Shown here piece by piece: positions 6,587 to 56,129 of a DNA stretch of 64,000 nucleotides. The notes beneath the pieces are model-generated. The model made no database searches. It was given only the letters and a program-made list of their open reading frames with translations, and was not told the origin of the DNA. Location: contig JAIEQF010000019.1 of assembly GCA_019747895.1 (NCBI GenBank), positions 71,363 through 135,362 of the forward strand, read 5' to 3'. Positions within the stretch are counted from its first letter, which is position 1. Each line of letters opens with the position of its first letter. Source of the stretch: Chthoniobacterales bacterium (GTDB taxonomy: Bacteria > Verrucomicrobiota > Verrucomicrobiia > Chthoniobacterales > UBA6821). The position numbers were made by a program, and so were the translations under genes.

Positions 6587-6755
6587 GGTTGCAGGTGACA
6601 GGTTGCAGGTGACAGGAGAAGTATGTTTGCCTGTAGCAAAACGGATAATTTTTTTCTCAGAATACATCAAAGTTGAAAAAAGTGCTTTTATTGGCGAATC
6701 ATTTTTATCGAAGAGCTAATTTTTACCTGTAACCTGTAACCTGCAACCTGTAGCC
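6587..6755. repeat. Word-arm hairpin, ACAGGTT class
   Basis: Left arm ggttgcaggtgacaggttgcaggtgacagg, right arm acctgtaacctgtaacctgcaacctgtagcc, with an AT-rich loop of about 108 nt. Confidence 0.85.
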
Positions 6756-8284: not shown

Positions 8285-9028
8285 ATGAAAAATGCTATTT
8301 GTTTTGAAAATAATAAAAACATTATTTTTCATACTCATCCTGGAGAGTCCTGCAGTTTGCTTCCTGGAGACGTTCATCTGTGGCTTGCCACGGTTAACCA
8401 TGTTCCTGAGCTCTCGCTATCAGTTGATGAACAAATAAAATTGAGTGCCATGAAGCTTCCTTTCGTAGCACGTCGCTTTGAGAGCACGCGAAAATTATTA
8501 AGATACTTGTTGGGCGTCTACTTGAAATGTCCCGATGGGCGCATTGAAAAAACAGATCAAGGAAAACCATTTTTGCCGGAGTTTCCAGAATTTCATTTTA
8601 ATGTTACTCATTCAAAAAAAATGATCATGGTAGCCCTGAGCAGAGGGTCAGTTGGCGTCGATTTGGAGAGGCTGCGAAAAATCGATCTGGTTTCTGTTGC
8701 TAAGCGTTTTTTTTCTCCTCAAGAATTACTTTTTTTACAGGAAGAAGGGCAGGAGCAAAATCAACAAACGTTTTTTAAACTTTGGACTGCCAAAGAAGCT
8801 GCATTAAAGGCTGATGGGGGAGGGATAGCCTTCGGAATGAAAAATAATGTTGCTACCATGGAGGAAGCCCATGTGCGCTCTATTGTTTTGAACAAACGAT
8901 CTTGGGAGATTAGCTCTTGGCGGCTTGAGGCAGGATCAGAATTCTTTTTCGGAGCGATTGCGACCCCCTTTGTTCCAGCTGTTATTCACTGGTATGATCT
9001 GAGAACGTTTGATAAGGTTAACAGCTAA
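8285..9028 (+). CDS. 4'-phosphopantetheinyl transferase (Sfp type)
   Basis: FHFNVTHSKKMIMVALSRGSVGVDLERL and FFKLWTAKEAALKADGGG match the PPTase motifs (G-x-D and W-x-x-KEA-x-x-K). Confidence 0.85.
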   Translation: MKNAICFENNKNIIFHTHPGESCSLLPGDVHLWLATVNHVPELSLSVDEQIKLSAMKLPFVARRFESTRKLLRYLLGVYLKCPDGRIEKTDQGKPFLPEFPEFHFNVTHSKKMIMVALSRGSVGVDLERLRKIDLVSVAKRFFSPQELLFLQEEGQEQNQQTFFKLWTAKEAALKADGGGIAFGMKNNVATMEEAHVRSIVLNKRSWEISSWRLEAGSEFFFGAIATPFVPAVIHWYDLRTFDKVNS

Positions 9029-17912: not shown

Positions 17913-20651
17913 CTAAAAAGCAGGCTGCTTTGGTAGAGCAAAGAGTCTGAATTTCTTTTTTTTAGGAGTTGGTGTTGGTGTTGGGCGAAGTTCTTTTTCA
18001 AGATTTTGGCTCCGTGTTCCAAGATCAGAGGTGCCTCCTTGTGTGTCGCTGGCTTTCTTCATCGATATATTCGAAGAAATGACACTTGGTTGAATCATGA
18101 CCACAAGTTCTTCTCGTTGTTTTTCGTTGTCGGTATGGCCTCCGAGTAGTGGACCAATGATCGGAATATTACTGATGTATGGAATGCCTGATTTATTTGC
18201 CGTTTTGCTCTCACTGATGAGTCCGCCAAGAACGATCGTAGAACCGCTGGGAATGCGGACACTAGTCGTGAGTTGTTGAGTCCGTATGACGGGCGCTAGA
18301 ATGCCTTGTTTAGCGGCAGCCGCAGTGGCAGTGTCATCAACTGATTGATTTTGTTGAGCAATAATCAGATTGACTTCATTGTCAGAGTTAATAAGTGGGA
18401 TAACTTCTAGTTTTAACAGAACATCTTGGTAGGTGATGTTGGAAGTAAAGGAGTTTGCAGTCTGGTTGGTATTGACTGCAGGAGCTGCTGTGTTAGCAAC
18501 CACACTGCTCAAGCTCGAAGATTGATAAGGGATTTTGCTTCCTGAAAAGATGGTCGCTTTTTTATTATTGCTCGTGTAGACCACGGGGCGTGCAATTGTA
18601 CGGAAGCGGCCACTTGTCTGTAAGAAATCAGCATACATGTCGACCGAGCCAGCAATAGAGCCGAAAAGCGTAAGACCTCCCATCCCTTGTGCCAGGGCAC
18701 CAGCTGCTGTCCCTGGAATGGCCGTAGCGAGGGTAGGCTGAGCCGCTCCTGATGCTAGGGCATTAAATCCTTTGTAGTGGAAAAGGTAAGCGGCGCCATA
18801 ATCCATGCCTTCATTGAGTCGCATGGTGCCGATGACAGCAGCGAGATAGACTTGCTGAGGACGACGATCGAGCAGGTCGATGATTTGACGTGCCTTAATT
18901 TTGCTTTCAGGTGGTCCGTAAACAATAATGCTGTTGGCCGTTGGATCCGCAATCAGGCTGGTTGATCCAATGATGGCTGATTGAGGAGGCTGTTGTTGAA
19001 CACTGTTGCCGAGAAGATCAGGACTGCTGGCACCTCCTGAAGAACTGCCTGTCGAGCCCGTGCTGCCATTGGCGCCACCCATCGGATTCATCGGGTTTTG
19101 AGCTGAGTTATTATTGTTATTACCAAAAGGACTCTGAGGTGATGGCTGTGTTTTTGCAGGATTGTTTTGGGAGTCATCATCTTTATTTTTGAGCAAGTCC
19201 AAAAGAACTGGAAAAACATCAGTCACGGGAACGTAGTTGAGAGGCCTGACGAGTGGCTCTTCGTATTGAACTGCTTGATCAAGCTTCGAGATCAGCTCAC
19301 GAATGTAGCGATAATTTTCTGCTTTTGTAACGAGGAGAATGCGGTTGGTTCGTTTGTCTGGAATGAATTGAACTTTACCACTGAAGATACGAGTCTCTTC
19401 ATCTCCGGAGGAGTTTGCCACGGGCGTTGGAGCTGGTTGCTGATAGGGTGAGGTTGGAGTTTTGGGAGTCTGAGAAGTACTACTTTCTTTTCCACTGAAA
19501 ATTTGATTTAAGGTTTCGACCGTTTTTTCAGCATCAGCTCGTTGCAACGAAATAAACTCGGTGATGATTTGAGAAGGCTCACGATCGATGATTTGTAAAA
19601 GAGCTAACGATTTTTGAATAATCGGAGTTTTATCCGTGATGACGATGGCACTCGTGTTAGGAACAGCAACGAGTGACCCGTAAGGATTGACTTGAATGAC
19701 ACCTTGAAGAATATTGATTGCTTCATTAGGGCTCAAAAAGTGAAGTGGTTGGTAAAAGCTGACGAGGCGCTCTCCGTCACTTGGCAATTCACCTGTATTT
19801 TGATAAAGAGGGAGTCCTTCCATGCGCGGAGGACGGCTTGGCCCAATGATTTTGACGGTCTTTTCATCAACGGGGACTAAGGCATAGCCATTCACCAGCA
19901 TCGTGCTTTCGAGTAATGAAACGGCATCTTTTTTAGAAACGGGATCAGCAATCATCAAAGAAAGATCCGGCCCAGCAAGATTAGAGTCTCTGATGATACG
20001 CTTGCCGGTCAATTTTTCATAAAGTGAGAGAGCTTCTAAAATCGAAGTGTGGGGAAATTGGATGCTGATTTTTTCGTTGGGATTACTGCTAATGGCAGCA
20101 ATCGCTGCAGCATTGCCCGAAGAATTAGTGTCCGTCGACGATGACGGAGCGGCTATTGCTTCGCTCAATTTTGCTGGTAACTTCGAGCGAGTTATGGTCG
20201 AAGAAGTGGAAGCGGGGTCCGTGGAAGGCAATGGTCTGGAGCTAGCAAGATCAGGTTTTGTTTGCTTGGAGGTAGTGCCAGGAATAAGAGGAATCGCGTG
20301 TGAGAGGGCATTGCTATCAATGCCAGAAGTGAGACTAGGTGGCAGAGAGGAAAAAGGAGTATTTGTAGGATGACTCGCAGTGATGTCTTTAGAGTCAGTG
20401 TTAGAATTATTTTTAGAATTAAGATTGGTGGGAAGAAGCCCATGAGAGGAAACATTCAACAAAGAGCTGGCTGGTTCAGCAGCAGGGCTTGAAGAAGGAG
20501 TCTCTGCAGGGATGGGGACTGTTGTTGCTGGTACCTCTTTTTCTTGTTGGGCAAGAAGCATAGAGGAGGAAAAAATGAGAGCACCAAGAGCGAGCAAGAA
20601 ATGATTTCTTGATGGTTGCTTCGCTGTTCGCAGGATTGAGTAAAGTGACAT
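17913..20651 (-). CDS. Secretin (type II/III secretion system protein, GspD-like N0-N3 plus secretin domain) with long low-complexity inserts
   Basis: N0-like FPHTSILEALSLYEKLTGKRIIRD and repeated secretin_N-like segments. C-terminal core GIPYISNIPIIGPLLGGHTDNEKQREELVVMIQP. About 155 aa of S/P/T-rich sequence follows the signal peptide, with a second G/N/S/Q-rich insert mid-protein. Confidence 0.88.
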   Translation of the reverse strand: MSLYSILRTAKQPSRNHFLLALGALIFSSSMLLAQQEKEVPATTVPIPAETPSSSPAAEPASSLLNVSSHGLLPTNLNSKNNSNTDSKDITASHPTNTPFSSLPPSLTSGIDSNALSHAIPLIPGTTSKQTKPDLASSRPLPSTDPASTSSTITRSKLPAKLSEAIAAPSSSTDTNSSGNAAAIAAISSNPNEKISIQFPHTSILEALSLYEKLTGKRIIRDSNLAGPDLSLMIADPVSKKDAVSLLESTMLVNGYALVPVDEKTVKIIGPSRPPRMEGLPLYQNTGELPSDGERLVSFYQPLHFLSPNEAINILQGVIQVNPYGSLVAVPNTSAIVITDKTPIIQKSLALLQIIDREPSQIITEFISLQRADAEKTVETLNQIFSGKESSTSQTPKTPTSPYQQPAPTPVANSSGDEETRIFSGKVQFIPDKRTNRILLVTKAENYRYIRELISKLDQAVQYEEPLVRPLNYVPVTDVFPVLLDLLKNKDDDSQNNPAKTQPSPQSPFGNNNNNSAQNPMNPMGGANGSTGSTGSSSGGASSPDLLGNSVQQQPPQSAIIGSTSLIADPTANSIIVYGPPESKIKARQIIDLLDRRPQQVYLAAVIGTMRLNEGMDYGAAYLFHYKGFNALASGAAQPTLATAIPGTAAGALAQGMGGLTLFGSIAGSVDMYADFLQTSGRFRTIARPVVYTSNNKKATIFSGSKIPYQSSSLSSVVANTAAPAVNTNQTANSFTSNITYQDVLLKLEVIPLINSDNEVNLIIAQQNQSVDDTATAAAAKQGILAPVIRTQQLTTSVRIPSGSTIVLGGLISESKTANKSGIPYISNIPIIGPLLGGHTDNEKQREELVVMIQPSVISSNISMKKASDTQGGTSDLGTRSQNLEKELRPTPTPTPKKKKFRLFALPKQPAF

Positions 20652-20758: not shown

Positions 20759-20889
20759 GGATAGAAGGGATAGAAGGGATGAAAGAGGGTTTTTAAAAAG
20801 CGACATCATAATTTCTTGGAAGACAATTTAAGAATAAGCTAAAATCTAAACTTGTTTTTGTATTTATCTCTTCTATCGCTTCCATAGAG
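20759..20889. repeat. Word-arm hairpin, GGATAGAAG class (weaker complementarity)
   Basis: ggatagaagggatagaagggatgaaagaggg against tatctcttctatcgcttccatagag. Confidence 0.55.
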
Positions 20890-20891
20890 AC

Positions 20892-20969
20892 TCGCTTGCT
20901 CCTGCTTGGCTCGCCGCTTTTGGGCTGCCTTCCGCAGTCTATCCGGCGGTCTTCCGACCACTCGTATTC
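20892..20969 (+). repeat. GC-rich B-module, copy 3 of 5 (diverged)
   Basis: tcgcttgctcctgcttggctcgccgcttttgggctgccttccgcagtctatccggcggtcttccgaccactcgtattc. Confidence 0.7.
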
Positions 20970-20970
20970 T

Positions 20971-21918
20971 GTGAATAGTTTCTCTTTTTTTCGCTTGCTG
21001 AATCTTCTTTCGCTTGATGTCGTTTTGATCGCTCTAGCATGGCAAGAGGTTTTTGCTCGCACTGCTACCGTTACTTTGCGATGGGAAGAAAGAGCTTTTT
21101 TGGCGCTTTCTATTTGGATTGTATACATTCTTGATCACTGGCTTGATTCCATGGCAGATATTGTTTCCAGTGCAGGCTTCTTTTCCAACAAAGCGCCGCG
21201 TCATCATTATGTCAGGTCTCATCGTTTCGTATTAGGAAGTCTTCTCGTGCTAGCCTCACTTACTAATGTTTGGTTGTTGTGGCATCTCGGATTAAGACTC
21301 TTGATCGCCGGAATGGGATTAGTCGTGATCACGTTGAGTTATCTTGTGATCAATGCTTTTTTTCTGCGACGAGGGCGTTGGTTCAAGGGGAGGGAAATAA
21401 TCATTTCTATTATTTTTTCAGTCGGATGCTCTTTGGTGGCGCTAGTTCAAGGTGATCGACCGTGGTTGCTCTTGCCCTGGATCATGGCTTTTGCACTGGT
21501 TGCTTTGATCAACTGCACGTTGATTGCTCGGATGGAGCGGATAGATTTCTTTCGAAACTCTACTTCTGATGCGAATTGCAGCGTCGCTCCGGTGCTCGCG
21601 TCATCGAGTATTAACTATGCATTCAGCCGCTGTGCGACGGAGGCTCCTGGCGCTTCATCGCCAGAAGCGAGTTTGGAAAGAAATCTAGTTTTACCATTGG
21701 CTCCAAAAATATTTTTTTCTCTGCGATCAGTTTTGTGCTTGCTTTTATTTTTGTTTCTTTTTGCTTTTCCATTTCCTTCGATCATAAAAGCTTTCTCTTG
21801 GAGCCTCATGGGATTAGCTCTTATTCCGATGATAGGGCGTCGCTGGGGTTATGAAGTTGCTTCTCTTGCTGCTGATCAAGTTTTGTTTTTTGGTGCTTTG
21901 TTATCCTTGTTAATATAA
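20971..21918 (+). CDS. Polytopic membrane protein, possibly UbiA-like prenyltransferase superfamily, with a repeat-derived insert
   Basis: The track ORF starts at TTG 20896, inside B-module 3. GTG 20971 directly after the module is the more likely start. Multiple TM helices. YILDHWLDSMAD resembles an Asp-rich DxxxD motif, so the family call is weak. Confidence 0.55.
   Translation: MNSFSFFRLLNLLSLDVVLIALAWQEVFARTATVTLRWEERAFLALSIWIVYILDHWLDSMADIVSSAGFFSNKAPRHHYVRSHRFVLGSLLVLASLTNVWLLWHLGLRLLIAGMGLVVITLSYLVINAFFLRRGRWFKGREIIISIIFSVGCSLVALVQGDRPWLLLPWIMAFALVALINCTLIARMERIDFFRNSTSDANCSVAPVLASSSINYAFSRCATEAPGASSPEASLERNLVLPLAPKIFFSLRSVLCLLLFLFLFAFPFPSIIKAFSWSLMGLALIPMIGRRWGYEVASLAADQVLFFGALLSLLI
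21585..21680 (+). repeat. E-module plus D-module copy lying in frame inside the membrane-protein ORF
   Basis: ccggtgctcgcgtcatcgagtattaac matches 34165-34190 at 25 of 27. tcagccgctgtgcg...cttcatcgccagaagcga aligns with the D-modules at 23787-23852 and 34357-34423. Confidence 0.8.
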
Positions 21919-23786: not shown

Positions 23787-23852
23787 ACACTCAGCCGCTG
23801 TGCGCCGCCGCTTCTTGCTCCTCATCCACAGCAGCGAATTTCTGAGGCAGTT
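23787..23852 (+). repeat. GC-rich D-module, copy 1
   Basis: acactcagccgctgtgcgccgccgcttcttgctcctcatccacagcagcgaatttctgaggcagtt, with an internal stem gccgctgtg/cacagcagc. Confidence 0.8.
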
Positions 23853-23903
23853 TTCAGAAAATTTTGAACACGCTCTCAGTTTGTAAAAGTGTATAAATTT
23901 TTT

Positions 23904-24727: not shown

Positions 24728-24829
24728 GTTGAGAGGTTGAGAGGTTGAGGGGTTGAGAGGACGCCTTTCTCTCAACGGCCGCGCCAGCGGCGCTCAACAG
24801 CTGCTTTAGCAGCGGCTCAACATCTCAAC
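24728..24829. repeat. Word-arm hairpin, GTTGAGAG class, with GC-rich palindromes in the right arm
   Basis: gttgagaggttgagaggttgaggggttgagagg against ctctcaac...gcgctcaac...ggctcaacatctcaac. Confidence 0.85.
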
Positions 24830-24886
24830 TTTTACAAAAGCAGGTTGAAGAATCTTACTCTTTGCCAAGCAACTGAACGGATACGA

Positions 24887-33625: not shown

Positions 33626-34036
33626 ATGGCTACGTTACACTTAGAAATCGTCACTCCTGACGCGCGTATCTACGAAGCAGATGTCGATCAAGTTGTCGTG
33701 CCTGGTGTCGAAGGTGAGCTCGGTATTCTTCCGCAGCACGTTCCGCTCATGACCCAACTTCAACCAGGAGAACTCCGCATTTATCAAAATGGCAAAGAGA
33801 GTCGTCTTGCGGTTGGAGAAGGGTTTATTGAGGTGCGTCCTGACAAAGTCTCCGTCTTGACCGACATGGCCATTCATGAGGCTGACATCGATGAGAAGGC
33901 TGTCGAAGAAGCAATAGCACGTGCAGAAAAAGAGATCAGGGATCAAGCGCTGGGTCATGAAGAGTTGGCTACGGTGCAGGCTTCGTTGCAGAAGTCGCTG
34001 GCTAAGCTACGCGTCAAGCGGCGCCACCACCATTAA
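33626..34036 (+). CDS. atpC: F0F1 ATP synthase subunit epsilon
   Basis: Operon position and the N-terminal beta-sandwich sequence LEIVTPD...VVPGVEGELGILPQHVPL. Confidence 0.93.
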   Translation: MATLHLEIVTPDARIYEADVDQVVVPGVEGELGILPQHVPLMTQLQPGELRIYQNGKESRLAVGEGFIEVRPDKVSVLTDMAIHEADIDEKAVEEAIARAEKEIRDQALGHEELATVQASLQKSLAKLRVKRRHHH

Positions 34037-34055
34037 CTGCCTCATTAATTGCAAC

Positions 34056-34134
34056 TTGCTCGCTCCCGCGAGGCTCGCCCCTGTGGGGCTGCCTTTGGCA
34101 TTTGATCCGGCGGCTCTGCCACGCCGCACGTATG
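34056..34134 (+). repeat. GC-rich B-module, copy 4 of 5
   Basis: ttgctcgctcccgcgaggctcgcccctgtggggctgcctttggcatttgatccggcggctctgccacgccgcacgtatg. Confidence 0.85.
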
Positions 34135-34192
34135 TACTGCTGCAGCGAAGAGCTGTGTCGCGCCAGTGCTCGCGTCATCGAGTATTAGCATA

Positions 34193-34358
34193 TATAGTCA
34201 AATTACTTAGAACTTACAAGCAACTGATTTGTCCTTTTTGGGAAAAGACTGCGTTCTCATCCCGTCATGTTATCGTTTAGATAGCGCTCGGTCTTCGGCC
34301 TGGCCTTTTCTAAAAATTCCTGCGTTCTTCCCTGTAATTTCTAAGTAATTTGATTATA
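34193..34358. mobile_element. MITE-like element, copy 1 (about 28-nt terminal inverted repeats, TA on both flanks)
   Basis: tatagtcaaattacttagaacttacaag against the reverse complement of cctgtaatttctaagtaatttgattata (25 of 28). 8 differences in 166 nt compared with 55801-55966. It sits between an E-module (34165-34190) and a D-module (34357-34423). Confidence 0.85.
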
Positions 34359-34503
34359 CACTCAGCCGCTGTGCGCTGTCGCTCCTTGTTCTTCATCCGC
34401 ATCAGCGAATTCCTAAGGCAGTTTAACCCTAGTTTTGCTGTTCCTGTTTTTTTAATGATGATTTCCTTGAAAAAATAAGCATTGTGATTTAGGTTTTGGG
34501 CCT

Positions 34504-49340: not shown

Positions 49341-49506
49341 GAAGGTTGAAAAAAGCAGTTAATCTTAAAAAGATACTTCAAATTTTGCGATCTAATTTTA
49401 GATTTTTTTTGTTAGCATTTTTGTAATCCTTCAGATTTCTGGTCAAGAATGAGCTTTATAAAACTATTTTTGTAAAAAGTTGAAAAGTTGAGTCGCTGAA
49501 AAGCAT

Positions 49507-49630
49507 CTGTTGAGCGCCGCTAGTGGGGCTGTTGAAAAGAAACCATCCTTTCAACCTCTCAACTCTTCAACAAAACCTTTGATGTAAGATTTTATTTGCT
49601 TTTGTATAATCTGGTCTTCTAAACGAATGC
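49507..49630. repeat. 124-nt element, uninterrupted copy (interrupted copy at 17699-17742 plus 17836-17910)
   Basis: The first 44 nt differ at 4 positions from 17699-17742. The last 74-75 nt differ at 7 positions from 17836-17910. Confidence 0.85.
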
Positions 49631-49717
49631 TTGCCCTCATCCCTTCAACAGGCGCGTTAGCGGCGCCTCAACAGCTGCCAAAGGCAGCGCTCAACTCTAA
49701 ACAGCCGCCGGAGGCGT

Positions 49718-52000: not shown

Positions 52001-52189
52001 AATTAACCGCAAAGAACGCAAAGAGCACAAAGAAAAAAATCTGACGATGATTGGCTTTTTCAAAATTATAGGGTTTGGTTATTATGTGAATGAGCACAAA
52101 ATACAAAATATCAACTAGCGAACCTGAAGCTTCGCTTTCAACTTTTTTTACTTTTTTCTTTGTGCTCTTTGCGTTTTTTGCGGTTAATT
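52001..52189. repeat. Word-arm hairpin, CACAAAGAA class, inserted between cydA and cydB
   Basis: aattaaccgcaaagaacgcaaagagcacaaagaaaaaa against the reverse complement of 52152-52189: 1 mismatch in 38 nt, with a 112-nt loop. Confidence 0.92.
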
Positions 52190-55417: not shown

Positions 55418-55688
55418 GATTGCACTTCGTTTCATAGCTCCTGCATTGAATGATGCAGGGGAAGTTATATTTTCAAATGACTTGGCCGCGATTAAAGCTT
55501 TGATTGACGCTCAAGTCATAAATCAGAACGCTCTTTTTCGTAATGGTCCATTTTTTGAATTGATCTGGATCAACTTGATGTGAGCTATGACTAGAGCATT
55601 TTCACTAAAGTTGTAGCCGCGCATTGCGGCGTCACTCCGGTGCTCGCGTCCTCGAGTATCAGAATACACTGCGGATCTGCGGTTGAAC

Positions 55689-55766
55689 TCGCTCGCTCCC
55701 GCTCGGCTCGCCCTTACGGGCTGCTTAACAGCAGTCCATCCAGCGGCCGCCCGGCCGGCTGTATTC
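55689..55766 (+). repeat. GC-rich B-module, copy 5 of 5 (diverged)
   Basis: tcgctcgctcccgctcggctcgcccttacgggctgcttaacagcagtccatccagcggccgcccggccggctgtattc. Confidence 0.7.
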
Positions 55767-55800
55767 TCGTTTCTGGCACTGCATCGGCTACAACTTCATT

Positions 55801-55966
55801 TATAGTCAAATTACTTAGAACTTACAAGCAATTGACTTGTCCTTTTTAGGAAAAGACTGTGTTCTCATCCCGTCACGTTATCGTTTAGATAGCGCTCGGT
55901 CTTCGGTCTGGCCTTTTCTAAAAATTCCTGCGTTCTTCCCTGTAATTTTTAAGTAATTTGACTATA
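55801..55966. mobile_element. MITE-like element, copy 2
   Basis: About 95% identical to 34193-34358. TA at 55801-55802 and 55965-55966 flanks the core tagtcaaatt...aatttgacta. Confidence 0.85.
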
Positions 55967-56129
55967 ACATGCTCTAGTAACTGTGAGAAAAAAGCTAGGT
56001 TCGTTTTCTGGAGAAGGATTTTCTTGTAAGTGATGATCTGTTTTTTGATCCGATGCTTCTGGTAAAAAAGCGCATGGAAAATCTAAAAGAATAGGTTCGG
56101 AAGAAACATCTTCTCTCTGTTGAAAAAAA

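Follow-up and report, generated by a model that had tools for sequence, protein, structure and literature searches.

Can a palindromic repeat settle inside a gene of a free-living bacterium and stay there as translated, in-frame sequence? The question is raised by a stretch of 64,000 nucleotides from a Chthoniobacterales metagenome-assembled genome (MAG; contig JAIEQF010000019.1), the whole of which was analysed and is referred to here as the window. A reading of the sequence alone had noticed, inside a membrane-protein gene of this window, repeats shared with intergenic DNA, and had proposed either an in-frame colonisation of coding DNA of the kind established for Rickettsia palindromic elements (RPEs) or a dead gene. 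The first proposal was supported by orthologues lacking the segment and by the occurrence of the same module, in frame, in unrelated genes. Positions 21544-21687 are very probably a copy of a 144-bp non-autonomous palindromic family, resembling the miniature transposable elements with inverted repeats (MITEs), that is hosted by a small freshwater clade of Chthoniobacterales type and is translated in frame as part of the host protein. The coordinates of all features are collected in Table 1.

Insertion into a living gene

The product of the host gene was 100% identical to GenBank MBX9577682.1 (K2W97_04285, from a Chthoniobacterales MAG), recorded there as a hypothetical protein of an intact gene. 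Its family is uncharacterised and has no Pfam match, and the sole match for the whole protein was a weak one to the NCBIfam model prenyl_LA_0991. An AlphaFold2 model was all-helical, with a mean predicted local distance difference test score (pLDDT) of 80.5, and its top Foldseek matches were the UbiA homologues 4od4 and 7bpu, both weak. These NCBIfam and Foldseek matches point to a small family of UbiA-like membrane proteins; 38 homologues of the host protein were retrieved by protein search.

Alignment of 20 orthologues, a check that the earlier reading had proposed, showed the segment to be lineage-specific. Orthologues of at most 72% identity in the same synteny (253-297 aa, except P0010 with 344 aa) had no such block and passed straight from an invariant NCTLIARMER motif into the next helix; in the window protein the element sits directly after this motif, which ends in ARMER, between two transmembrane helices. 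The block was confined to the closest relatives (at least about 85% identity), namely P0001 (95%), P0002 and P0007, and P0010 carried a diverged copy of the element at a different site within the same protein family. Gene order (secretin-X-BamD-LptE-RsmI) was identical at the orthologous loci compared, and at the DNA level exactly 138 nt (46 codons) were absent from L001 and L002 and present in the window and in L003 and L004. By comparison with these syntenic orthologues, the block is shown to be an insertion. The segment had been put at roughly 40 residues; the lineage-specific block proved to be 46 codons long when measured against L001, and 48-49 codons long when measured as an element.

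The residues following ARMER in frame were IDFFRNSTSDANCSVAPVLASSSINY, and the peptide quoted earlier as read without a stop, SDANCSVAPVLASSSINYAFSRCATEAPGASSPEASLER(N), was confirmed as the true in-frame translation. The element occupies residues D192-L239 of the host protein, adding about 48-49 codons. One frame alone of the window copy is both stop-free and used by genic copies elsewhere, and this is the frame in use.

Two genomes with the insert, the window and L003, differed in the host part of the gene by 21 synonymous and 15 nonsynonymous changes, a dN/dS ratio (omega) of 0.21; against L001 the host-part omega was 0.26. On these substitution patterns the gene is alive and has been under purifying selection since the insertion, and the dead gene that the sequence-only reading had kept as its alternative was rejected. 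A pseudogene inactivated by the repeat, with a frame left open by coincidence, is very improbable in view of this ratio, of an open reading frame (ORF) intact in at least three independent assemblies (window, L003/L004 and P0007), of the conservation in the window protein of all residues that are invariant in the orthologue alignment, and of the presence of the same element in SecA, Ffh, MetRS, DnaX and HolA. It would draw some support from the uncharacterised, Pfam-less host family, from the position of the insert beside ARMER, the most conserved motif, and from a second repeat (B, see below) that disrupts the sequence immediately 5' of the start codon.

The insert itself showed one synonymous and five nonsynonymous changes between the window and L003. 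In the AlphaFold2 model most host helices had pLDDT values above 90, residues 204-224 (about 20 central residues of the insert) fell below 50, and the ends of the insert prolonged the flanking helices. Because the host omega is low, the changes in the insert are mostly nonsynonymous and the modelled loop is of low confidence, the gene is alive, and the insert probably drifts as unconstrained cargo, in a loop that is probably disordered.

Structure of the element

The repeat had been described as two adjoining modules, E and D, of which E was said to match an intergenic copy at 34165-34190 at 25 of 27 positions. The measured agreement was 23 of 26 (21591-21616), including an exact run of 22 nt, and the whole left arm (21561-21613 against 34135-34187) matched at 44 of 53 positions. 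For D, the claimed identity of a 14-nt core held, TCAGCCGCTGTGCG being found exactly at 21623, 23791 and 34362 (0.03 expected); the overall identity to intergenic copies, given as about 70%, was about 65-70% with gaps. The division into two modules did not stand. Terminal inverted repeats and an alignment of the segment to its own reverse complement over the whole length make E the left arm and D the right arm of a single 144-bp palindromic element.

The window element matched the family hidden Markov model (HMM) at E=3.6e-45, with exactly 144 nt between its tips. Its 26-bp terminal inverted repeats (GATTTCTTTCGAAACTC... and ...GAGTTTGGAAAGAAATC) gave a self-match of 27 nt at 89%. Across copies the terminal repeats measured about 19-26 bp and were subfamily-specific and always complementary, with GACTTCTTTCAAAACTC and AACCTGTCTTCAAAGTC among the end sequences; divergence between subfamilies lay in roughly the 17 outermost bp of each arm, with complementarity kept. 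The earlier description of a GC-rich repeat was right as to the repeat, but its GC content (0.51 against about 0.44 for the window) is only moderately high.

Alignment of 24 complete copies gave a consensus of one long hairpin with 44 pairs. Paired cells amounted to 95.5%; shuffles gave 81%, and sliding the partners 35-50%. Compensatory double changes were found in 21 pairs (14.6 in shuffles) and changes on both sides in 146 cells (40 in shuffles); one invariant T-G pair sits within the search core and is therefore uninformative. Since one-sided changes such as G-C to G-U were rare, a symmetry maintained at the DNA level, as terminal repeats or as a hairpin, fits better than a constraint on RNA only. 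The RNA hairpin predicted for the window segment has an energy of -55 kcal/mol. A known structured RNA or intron was rejected, as Rfam gave no match on the region, neither at gathering thresholds nor at E up to 1.

Target site duplications

The joined flanks of full copies were blasted against the approximately 515 kb of DNA examined, which provided empty sites for four independent insertions, and net insert sizes from 132 to 155 nt were scanned without bias. A net size of 147 was the best in all four filled/empty pairs: RsmE (filled in L005, empty in L008), 4'-phosphopantetheinyl transferase (PPTase; filled in L023, empty in the window) and two sites in one class-V aminotransferase (L049 against L053 and L055). 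The triplets duplicated around the 144-bp unit were CAG/CAG and TTG/TTG (perfect), GAG/GAA and TTA/TTT. Added to a 3-bp duplication, a unit of 144 bp makes 147 bp, and therefore 49 codons per event with the downstream frame kept; in the window the PPTase is 247 aa long, and the ORF of L023, with its 49-aa insert, comes to about 296 aa. The class-V aminotransferase gene of L049 carries two copies of different subfamilies 150 nt apart (2028-2175 and 2325-2472), both in frame, and its relatives have one copy (L053) or neither (L055).

A duplicated TA, as in IS630/mariner-like elements, had been considered on account of TAGAC...GTCTA flanks and was dropped, the empty sites giving 147 bp and 3-bp duplications other than TA. 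Terminal repeats, target duplication, small size and multiple copies support the view that the element behaves as a non-autonomous DNA transposon of the MITE class.

Insertions in other genes

The earlier reading had also called for a search of other coding genes for the repeat. About 30 gene sites were found to carry the element, all of them stop-free in spanning-ORF tests and Pfam scans, with the frame kept; besides the host gene of the window, they represent about 29 gene families of related genomes. Hosts among core genes were HolA, DnaX, SecA, MetRS, Ffh and NuoG; SecA, Ffh, MetRS, DnaX and HolA are essential in model bacteria. Transport and membrane hosts comprised FeoB, an AcrB-type pump, a family-5 solute-binding protein and several membrane or hypothetical proteins. 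Among enzymes, the element was present in RsmE, PolX, Nnr, GlgP, PPTase, two glycosyltransferases, a squalene/phytoene synthase, the class-V aminotransferase (twice in one gene), prephenate dehydrogenase, dehydroquinase and AddB-like nucleases. A first protein search had already returned the same peptide in Ffh, RsmE, an NAD(P)H-hydrate dehydratase, glycogen phosphorylase and a hypothetical protein, and the MAG to which the window belongs has the module in frame in Ffh (K2W97_02900) and in an NAD(P)H-hydrate dehydratase as well. The model of this Ffh (P0029) lacks the N domain and P-loop, its first residue corresponding to residue 135 of the B. subtilis protein, and the gene may be split upstream or its start miscalled. 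Compared with solved homologues, which have short loops at both places, the insert of Ffh replaces a 6-residue loop (B. subtilis residues 164-171) and that of SecA is located between residues 775 and 788 of T. thermophilus, presumably where the scaffold helix joins the wing domain.

The 13 genic copies in the alignment were all exactly 144 nt long; the 11 intergenic copies measured 143 nt (6 copies), 144 nt (4) or 145 nt (1). Two of the six reading phases were used. The great majority of genic copies shared one forward phase, with a peptide of the form ..NST.DA.C.VAPVLASSSINYTLSRCAP.., which was stop-free in 13/13 aligned genic copies and encodes a hydrophilic Ser/Ala/Pro-rich sequence (..NSTSDANCGVAPVLASSSINYTLSRCAPEAPGTSSP..). 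A reverse phase (NRPLSKFAAGDE..LILDDASTG..) was used by three hosts, DnaX, NuoG and a beta-lactamase-family gene, and was stop-free in 5 of the 13. A second forward phase, which would code for an Arg/Leu-rich peptide, was open in 8 of the 13 and never used. This pattern of length and phase is as predicted by selection on the translated product, and it argues against removal at the RNA or protein level.

Removal or bypass of the element, whether in the manner of an intron or intein, by RNase III processing or by translational hopping like that of the mitochondrial 'byp' elements, would otherwise have been attractive for so stable a predicted RNA hairpin, and GC-rich palindromic inserts in coding genes are indeed bypassed in Magnusiomyces mitochondria. 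None of these processes would require 13 of 13 genic copies at 144 nt or some 30 stop-free sites, Rfam gave no match (introns included) at E up to 1, and the 48-aa insert, too small for an intein, has no recognised intein motifs and no protein family match; such a fate is hardly credible. An assignment to inteins or to group I/II introns was dropped for want of any Rfam match at E up to 1 and of any protein family match.

It might also be argued that the insert was co-opted as a functional loop or domain, for instance to mediate interaction or regulation, and owes its retention to the peptide. Genic copies from different hosts agree well in the core VAPVLASSSINYTLSRCAP, just two of several open phases are ever used, and the flanking helices of the AlphaFold2 model run into the ends of the insert. 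However, the core is equally conserved in intergenic copies, so that the constraint lies at the level of DNA or hairpin. The excess of nonsynonymous over synonymous changes in the insert, the pLDDT below 50 of its central 20 residues, the absence of a Pfam or NCBIfam family for the peptide and the fact that orthologues without the insert are the rule further make co-option quite unlikely.

Proposed mechanism and points against it

Translated cargo of a mobile palindrome would then be accounted for as follows. The 144-bp element, mobilised in trans by a DDE-type transposase, would insert with a 3-bp target duplication, add 49 codons and never shift the downstream frame. Insertions landing in one of the two open phases, within a tolerant loop, would survive selection and be translated as part of the host protein. 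In the gene of the window the landing site would have been the position after NCTLIARMER, between transmembrane helices, the host remaining under selection and the insert drifting as a loop.

Several points weigh against this scenario. The omega of the insert is based on six substitutions in all, and its translation is suggested solely by a length of 3n, by the lack of stops and by selection on the host. Two of the filled/empty pairs are also readable as a 146-bp symmetric unit with a 1-bp duplication. The window copy has a net size of 138 against L001, not 147, and its flanking triplets ATA and GTT are mismatched, which may be put down to the age of the insertion, to a comparator of 72% identity and to a variable loop. 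A search of the 515 kb or so of DNA examined turned up neither an autonomous element or transposase whose terminal repeats match nor any orphan terminal repeats beyond those of the short copies.

Finally, all sequences come from MAG or metagenome assemblies, and the repeat demonstrably yields chimeric ones. P0002 consists of the N-terminus of the membrane protein discussed here and the C-terminus of HolA, and P0024 of the N-terminus of RsmE and the C-terminus of that membrane protein, both joined exactly inside the element; they are most likely mis-joins across the repeat. These two public proteins lend some colour to the idea that the genic position is itself an artefact, the repeat having been collapsed or mis-joined into the gene in the MAG. 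This is extremely improbable, since the same site with collinear flanks was recovered in independent assemblies (the NCBI K2W97 MAG, two ENA GROS21 samples and the WCO92 MAG) and divergence among the copies parallels that of the remainder of the gene.

Copies of the family

A conserved core 20-mer was found at 28 loci in four MAGs, namely the Lac Pavin Verrucomicrobiia MAG_45_28 (22 copies), a K_DeepCast lake MAG and two MAGs named "Chthoniobacter sp.". It was also present in 36 JGI metagenome contigs, which brings the contigs with an exact core to more than 60 overall, and HMM searches recovered further, more diverged copies. Verrucomicrobiota/Chthoniobacterales MAGs and lake metagenomes were the source of all copies. 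Of the 22 copies that match the core in the Lac Pavin MAG, 10 were genic, and the genic share of copies is about 40%. An exhaustive search of representative proteins with the 49-aa consensus peptide gave 13 cluster representatives; this search shows a rare peptide module limited to one clade, and it undercounts hosts because those bearing the insert are seldom cluster representatives. A word-indexed protein search with the same consensus gave two short ORFs, a number that reflects a limit of the word index.

The window holds three full copies and one half copy of the element, and the 20-mer occurs in it three times (0.00 expected from shuffles). Besides the copy in the host gene, those near 34100-34430, 55600-55980 and 23787 are intergenic (Table 1). 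The 170-nt MITE in the loop of the first of these has the terminal repeat TATAGTCAAATTACTTAG and TA/TATA flanks, and its two copies in the window are 95% identical. Other small repeats appear to insert preferentially in the TATA of the loop and in the arms of the 144-bp element. A variant of the element, in L026 (1335-1492) and L027 (5733-5895), has an additional mini-hairpin of about 16-20 nt in its loop (..GACACTCGTCGAAAAA..TCTTCGTGCTGTGCG..) and in L027, where the host is MetRS, is still in frame.

Table 1. Features of the window discussed in the text
Feature	Position	Strand	Remarks
Host gene	20971..21918	+	GTG start; 315-aa polytopic membrane protein, UbiA-superfamily-like (prenyltransferase-like)
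144-bp palindromic MITE-like element (E and D modules of the earlier reading)	21544..21687	+	Absent in L001/L002, present in L003/L004
Left terminal inverted repeat GATTTCTTTCGAAACTCTACTTCTGA	21544..21569	+	Pairs with 21662-21687; helix 1 of the consensus hairpin
Right terminal inverted repeat CAGAAGCGAGTTTGGAAAGAAATCTA	21662..21687	+	Pairs with the left terminal inverted repeat
Left flank triplet ATA	21541..21543	+	Putative degenerate remnant of a 3-bp target-site duplication, by analogy with four other filled/empty pairs
Right flank triplet GTT	21688..21690	+	Putative duplication partner of ATA; the triplets are mismatched in the window copy
B-module	20886..20968	+	Net 81-nt GC-rich repeat; ends 2-4 nt upstream of the GTG start
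Empty target site CAG	8738..8740	+	In the PPTase gene of the window (8285-9028); the Lac Pavin MAG has the element there
Right-arm-only remnant	23787..23860	+	LptE-RsmI spacer; same remnant at the orthologous position in L001/L002 (L001 6828-6901)
Intergenic copy	34033..34426	+	Nested B-module in the left arm (34049-34138); 170-nt TA-flanked MITE in the loop (34189-34358)
Intergenic copy	55591..55977	+	Nested B-module (55683-55773) and second 170-nt MITE copy (55797-55966)

The B-module and other neighbouring features

The sequence-only reading had placed a copy of another repeat, B, against the probable start codon, and such a copy does lie there, at about 20886-20968, 2-4 nt before the GTG. 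L001 has an 81-nt gap precisely at this site, and the insertion is present in the window and in L003. The B family counted five copies in the window and about 13 in the DNA examined, five being nested within copies of the 144-bp element. A second, independent repeat family, B is located here in the 5' leader of the host gene, outside the coding part. A TTG at 20896 opens a frame that crosses this copy uninterrupted; however, MNSF is the start both in the orthologues and in the GenBank model.

In FeoB (L005, 20547-20778, minus strand) the loop of the 144-bp element contains an 81-nt B copy, and the reading frame runs across the entire composite, roughly 230 nt, as ..VLASSS-SNSLAPARLALTGCLTAVDPAAAMPHVC-NDTLSRCAP..; B, too, is accordingly a 3n repeat compatible with the frame. 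The B junctions at window 20885/20886, L021 (about 6014) and L024 (about 1701) are preceded by ..TCCAT, ..CGCAT and ..TTCAT, respectively, and have no obvious target duplication. They would fit an insertion 3' of a short motif, by analogy with IS200/IS605-type elements.

The secretin gene that adjoins the host gene (window 17913-20651, minus strand) encodes 912 aa here and in L003/L004, against 763 aa in L001; the additional length is a Ser/Thr/Pro/Asn-rich low-complexity N-terminal region and is not due to E/D or B repeats. The LptE-RsmI spacer of the closest relatives, L003 (7408-7761) and L004 (8722-9075), contains a gene of 117 aa with a 23S-rRNA-IVP/bAvd-like domain, and at that place the window has the half-element remnant only. 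The genome is unusually rich in small interspersed repeats: other short families occur, for example, at 2888-2998, 6704-6749, 17694-17742, 24770-24838, 49500-49695 and 52001-52189, and include CCTGTAACCTGTAACC runs, CAAAGAACACAAAGAA units in inverted pairs and CTCAACAGCCGC...GCGGCGCTCAACAGCTGC palindromes.

Relation to known systems

REPs and REPINs (repetitive extragenic palindromic sequences and the mobile elements composed of them) are extragenic units of 20-40 bp, tagged by GTAG or CGTC, that are not known to make a target duplication. Like the element described here, these sequences, associated with RAYT (REP-associated tyrosine) transposases, are palindromic, hairpin-forming, present in high copy number and GC-rich relative to their surroundings, with compensatory changes in the stem (PMC3733652). 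The present element differs in being a single 144-bp hairpin that is often genic and has a 3-bp duplication, and membership was rejected on the last feature and on the proportion of genic copies (about 40%).

The closest resemblance is to RPEs (RPE-1 and related elements; Ogata et al. 2000, as described in PMC10969869 and PMC2229807). Four insert peptides, representing both orientations and three subfamilies, gave no match at E up to 10 in Pfam or in NCBIfam, which presumably includes the TIGRFAM models of the RPE domain. On these profile searches and on the different phylum of the host, membership in the RPE family is not supported, the comparison being one of peptide profiles. RPEs are put at 105-146 or 105-150 bp in length, with a long stem-loop and an ORF of their own; they occur in 19 ORFs of R. 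conorii, and the Rickettsia gmk product carrying one is translated and active (PMC2229807, PMC10969869). Both systems share a similar size, a long stem-loop, terminal inverted repeats, an own open frame and many in-frame copies in conserved housekeeping genes (the 19 ORFs of R. conorii against about 30 gene sites here). Intergenic copies exist in both as well, insertion is found where the host fold permits it, and the effect is apparently neutral. The RPE host, however, is an obligate intracellular alphaproteobacterium, while the present one is a free-living freshwater verrucomicrobial bacterium of about 44% GC. A 3-bp target duplication is demonstrable here, whereas that of RPEs is listed as unknown (PMC2229807); in addition, both orientations are used and a nested B copy stays in frame.

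Several bacterial MITEs also have intragenic in-frame copies, namely Correia/NEMIS in its 107-bp form, ERIC/IRU and YPAL (Delihas, PMC2229807) and QMITE1/2 of Coxiella (PMC5896051). They resemble the present element in being non-autonomous, with terminal inverted repeats, a target duplication, a hairpin-forming transcript and ORFs fused to host ORFs, and Correia elements share the division of length variants between genic and intergenic copies (107 against 155 bp there, 144 against 143 nt here). Most of these MITEs, on the other hand, duplicate TA, are A+T-rich and are mainly intergenic; the 3-bp duplication here has no evident consensus, the GC content is above that of the genome, and some 40% of copies lie within genes, in many cases core genes.

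Significance

The searchable literature yielded no description of such elements in Verrucomicrobia. On balance, it seems somewhat probable that these are undescribed and still-active 'protein-coding palindromes', independent of RPEs, in free-living freshwater Verrucomicrobiota, and that their architecture is adapted to genes. Such an adaptation may be seen in the 49 codons of each event, in peptides that would be benign and probably disordered in both orientations, in the coexistence of 144- and 143-nt subfamilies and in the nestable 81-nt repeat.

A practical consequence for those who annotate these lineages is that the repeat creates chimeric gene models in MAGs, such as P0002 and P0024, and inflates or splits annotations. 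The settling of selfish palindromes, in frame, in housekeeping genes is usually presented as a speciality of Rickettsia and is often tied to the relaxed selection of intracellular genomes. The same behaviour is found here at a comparable rate, about 40% of copies being genic, in uncultured free-living lake Verrucomicrobiota, and what stands out is the extent to which core genes of a free-living lineage are colonised, together with the clean architecture of 144 + 3 bp. The family provides a second, independent system for studying the tolerance of proteins to random insertions of 49 residues, and allows testing whether some MITEs evolve compatibility with coding sequences. If this reading is true, lake metagenome series would offer natural filled/empty polymorphisms from which the fitness cost of insertion could be measured, and the RPE-like colonisation of core genes would not be peculiar to reduced intracellular genomes.

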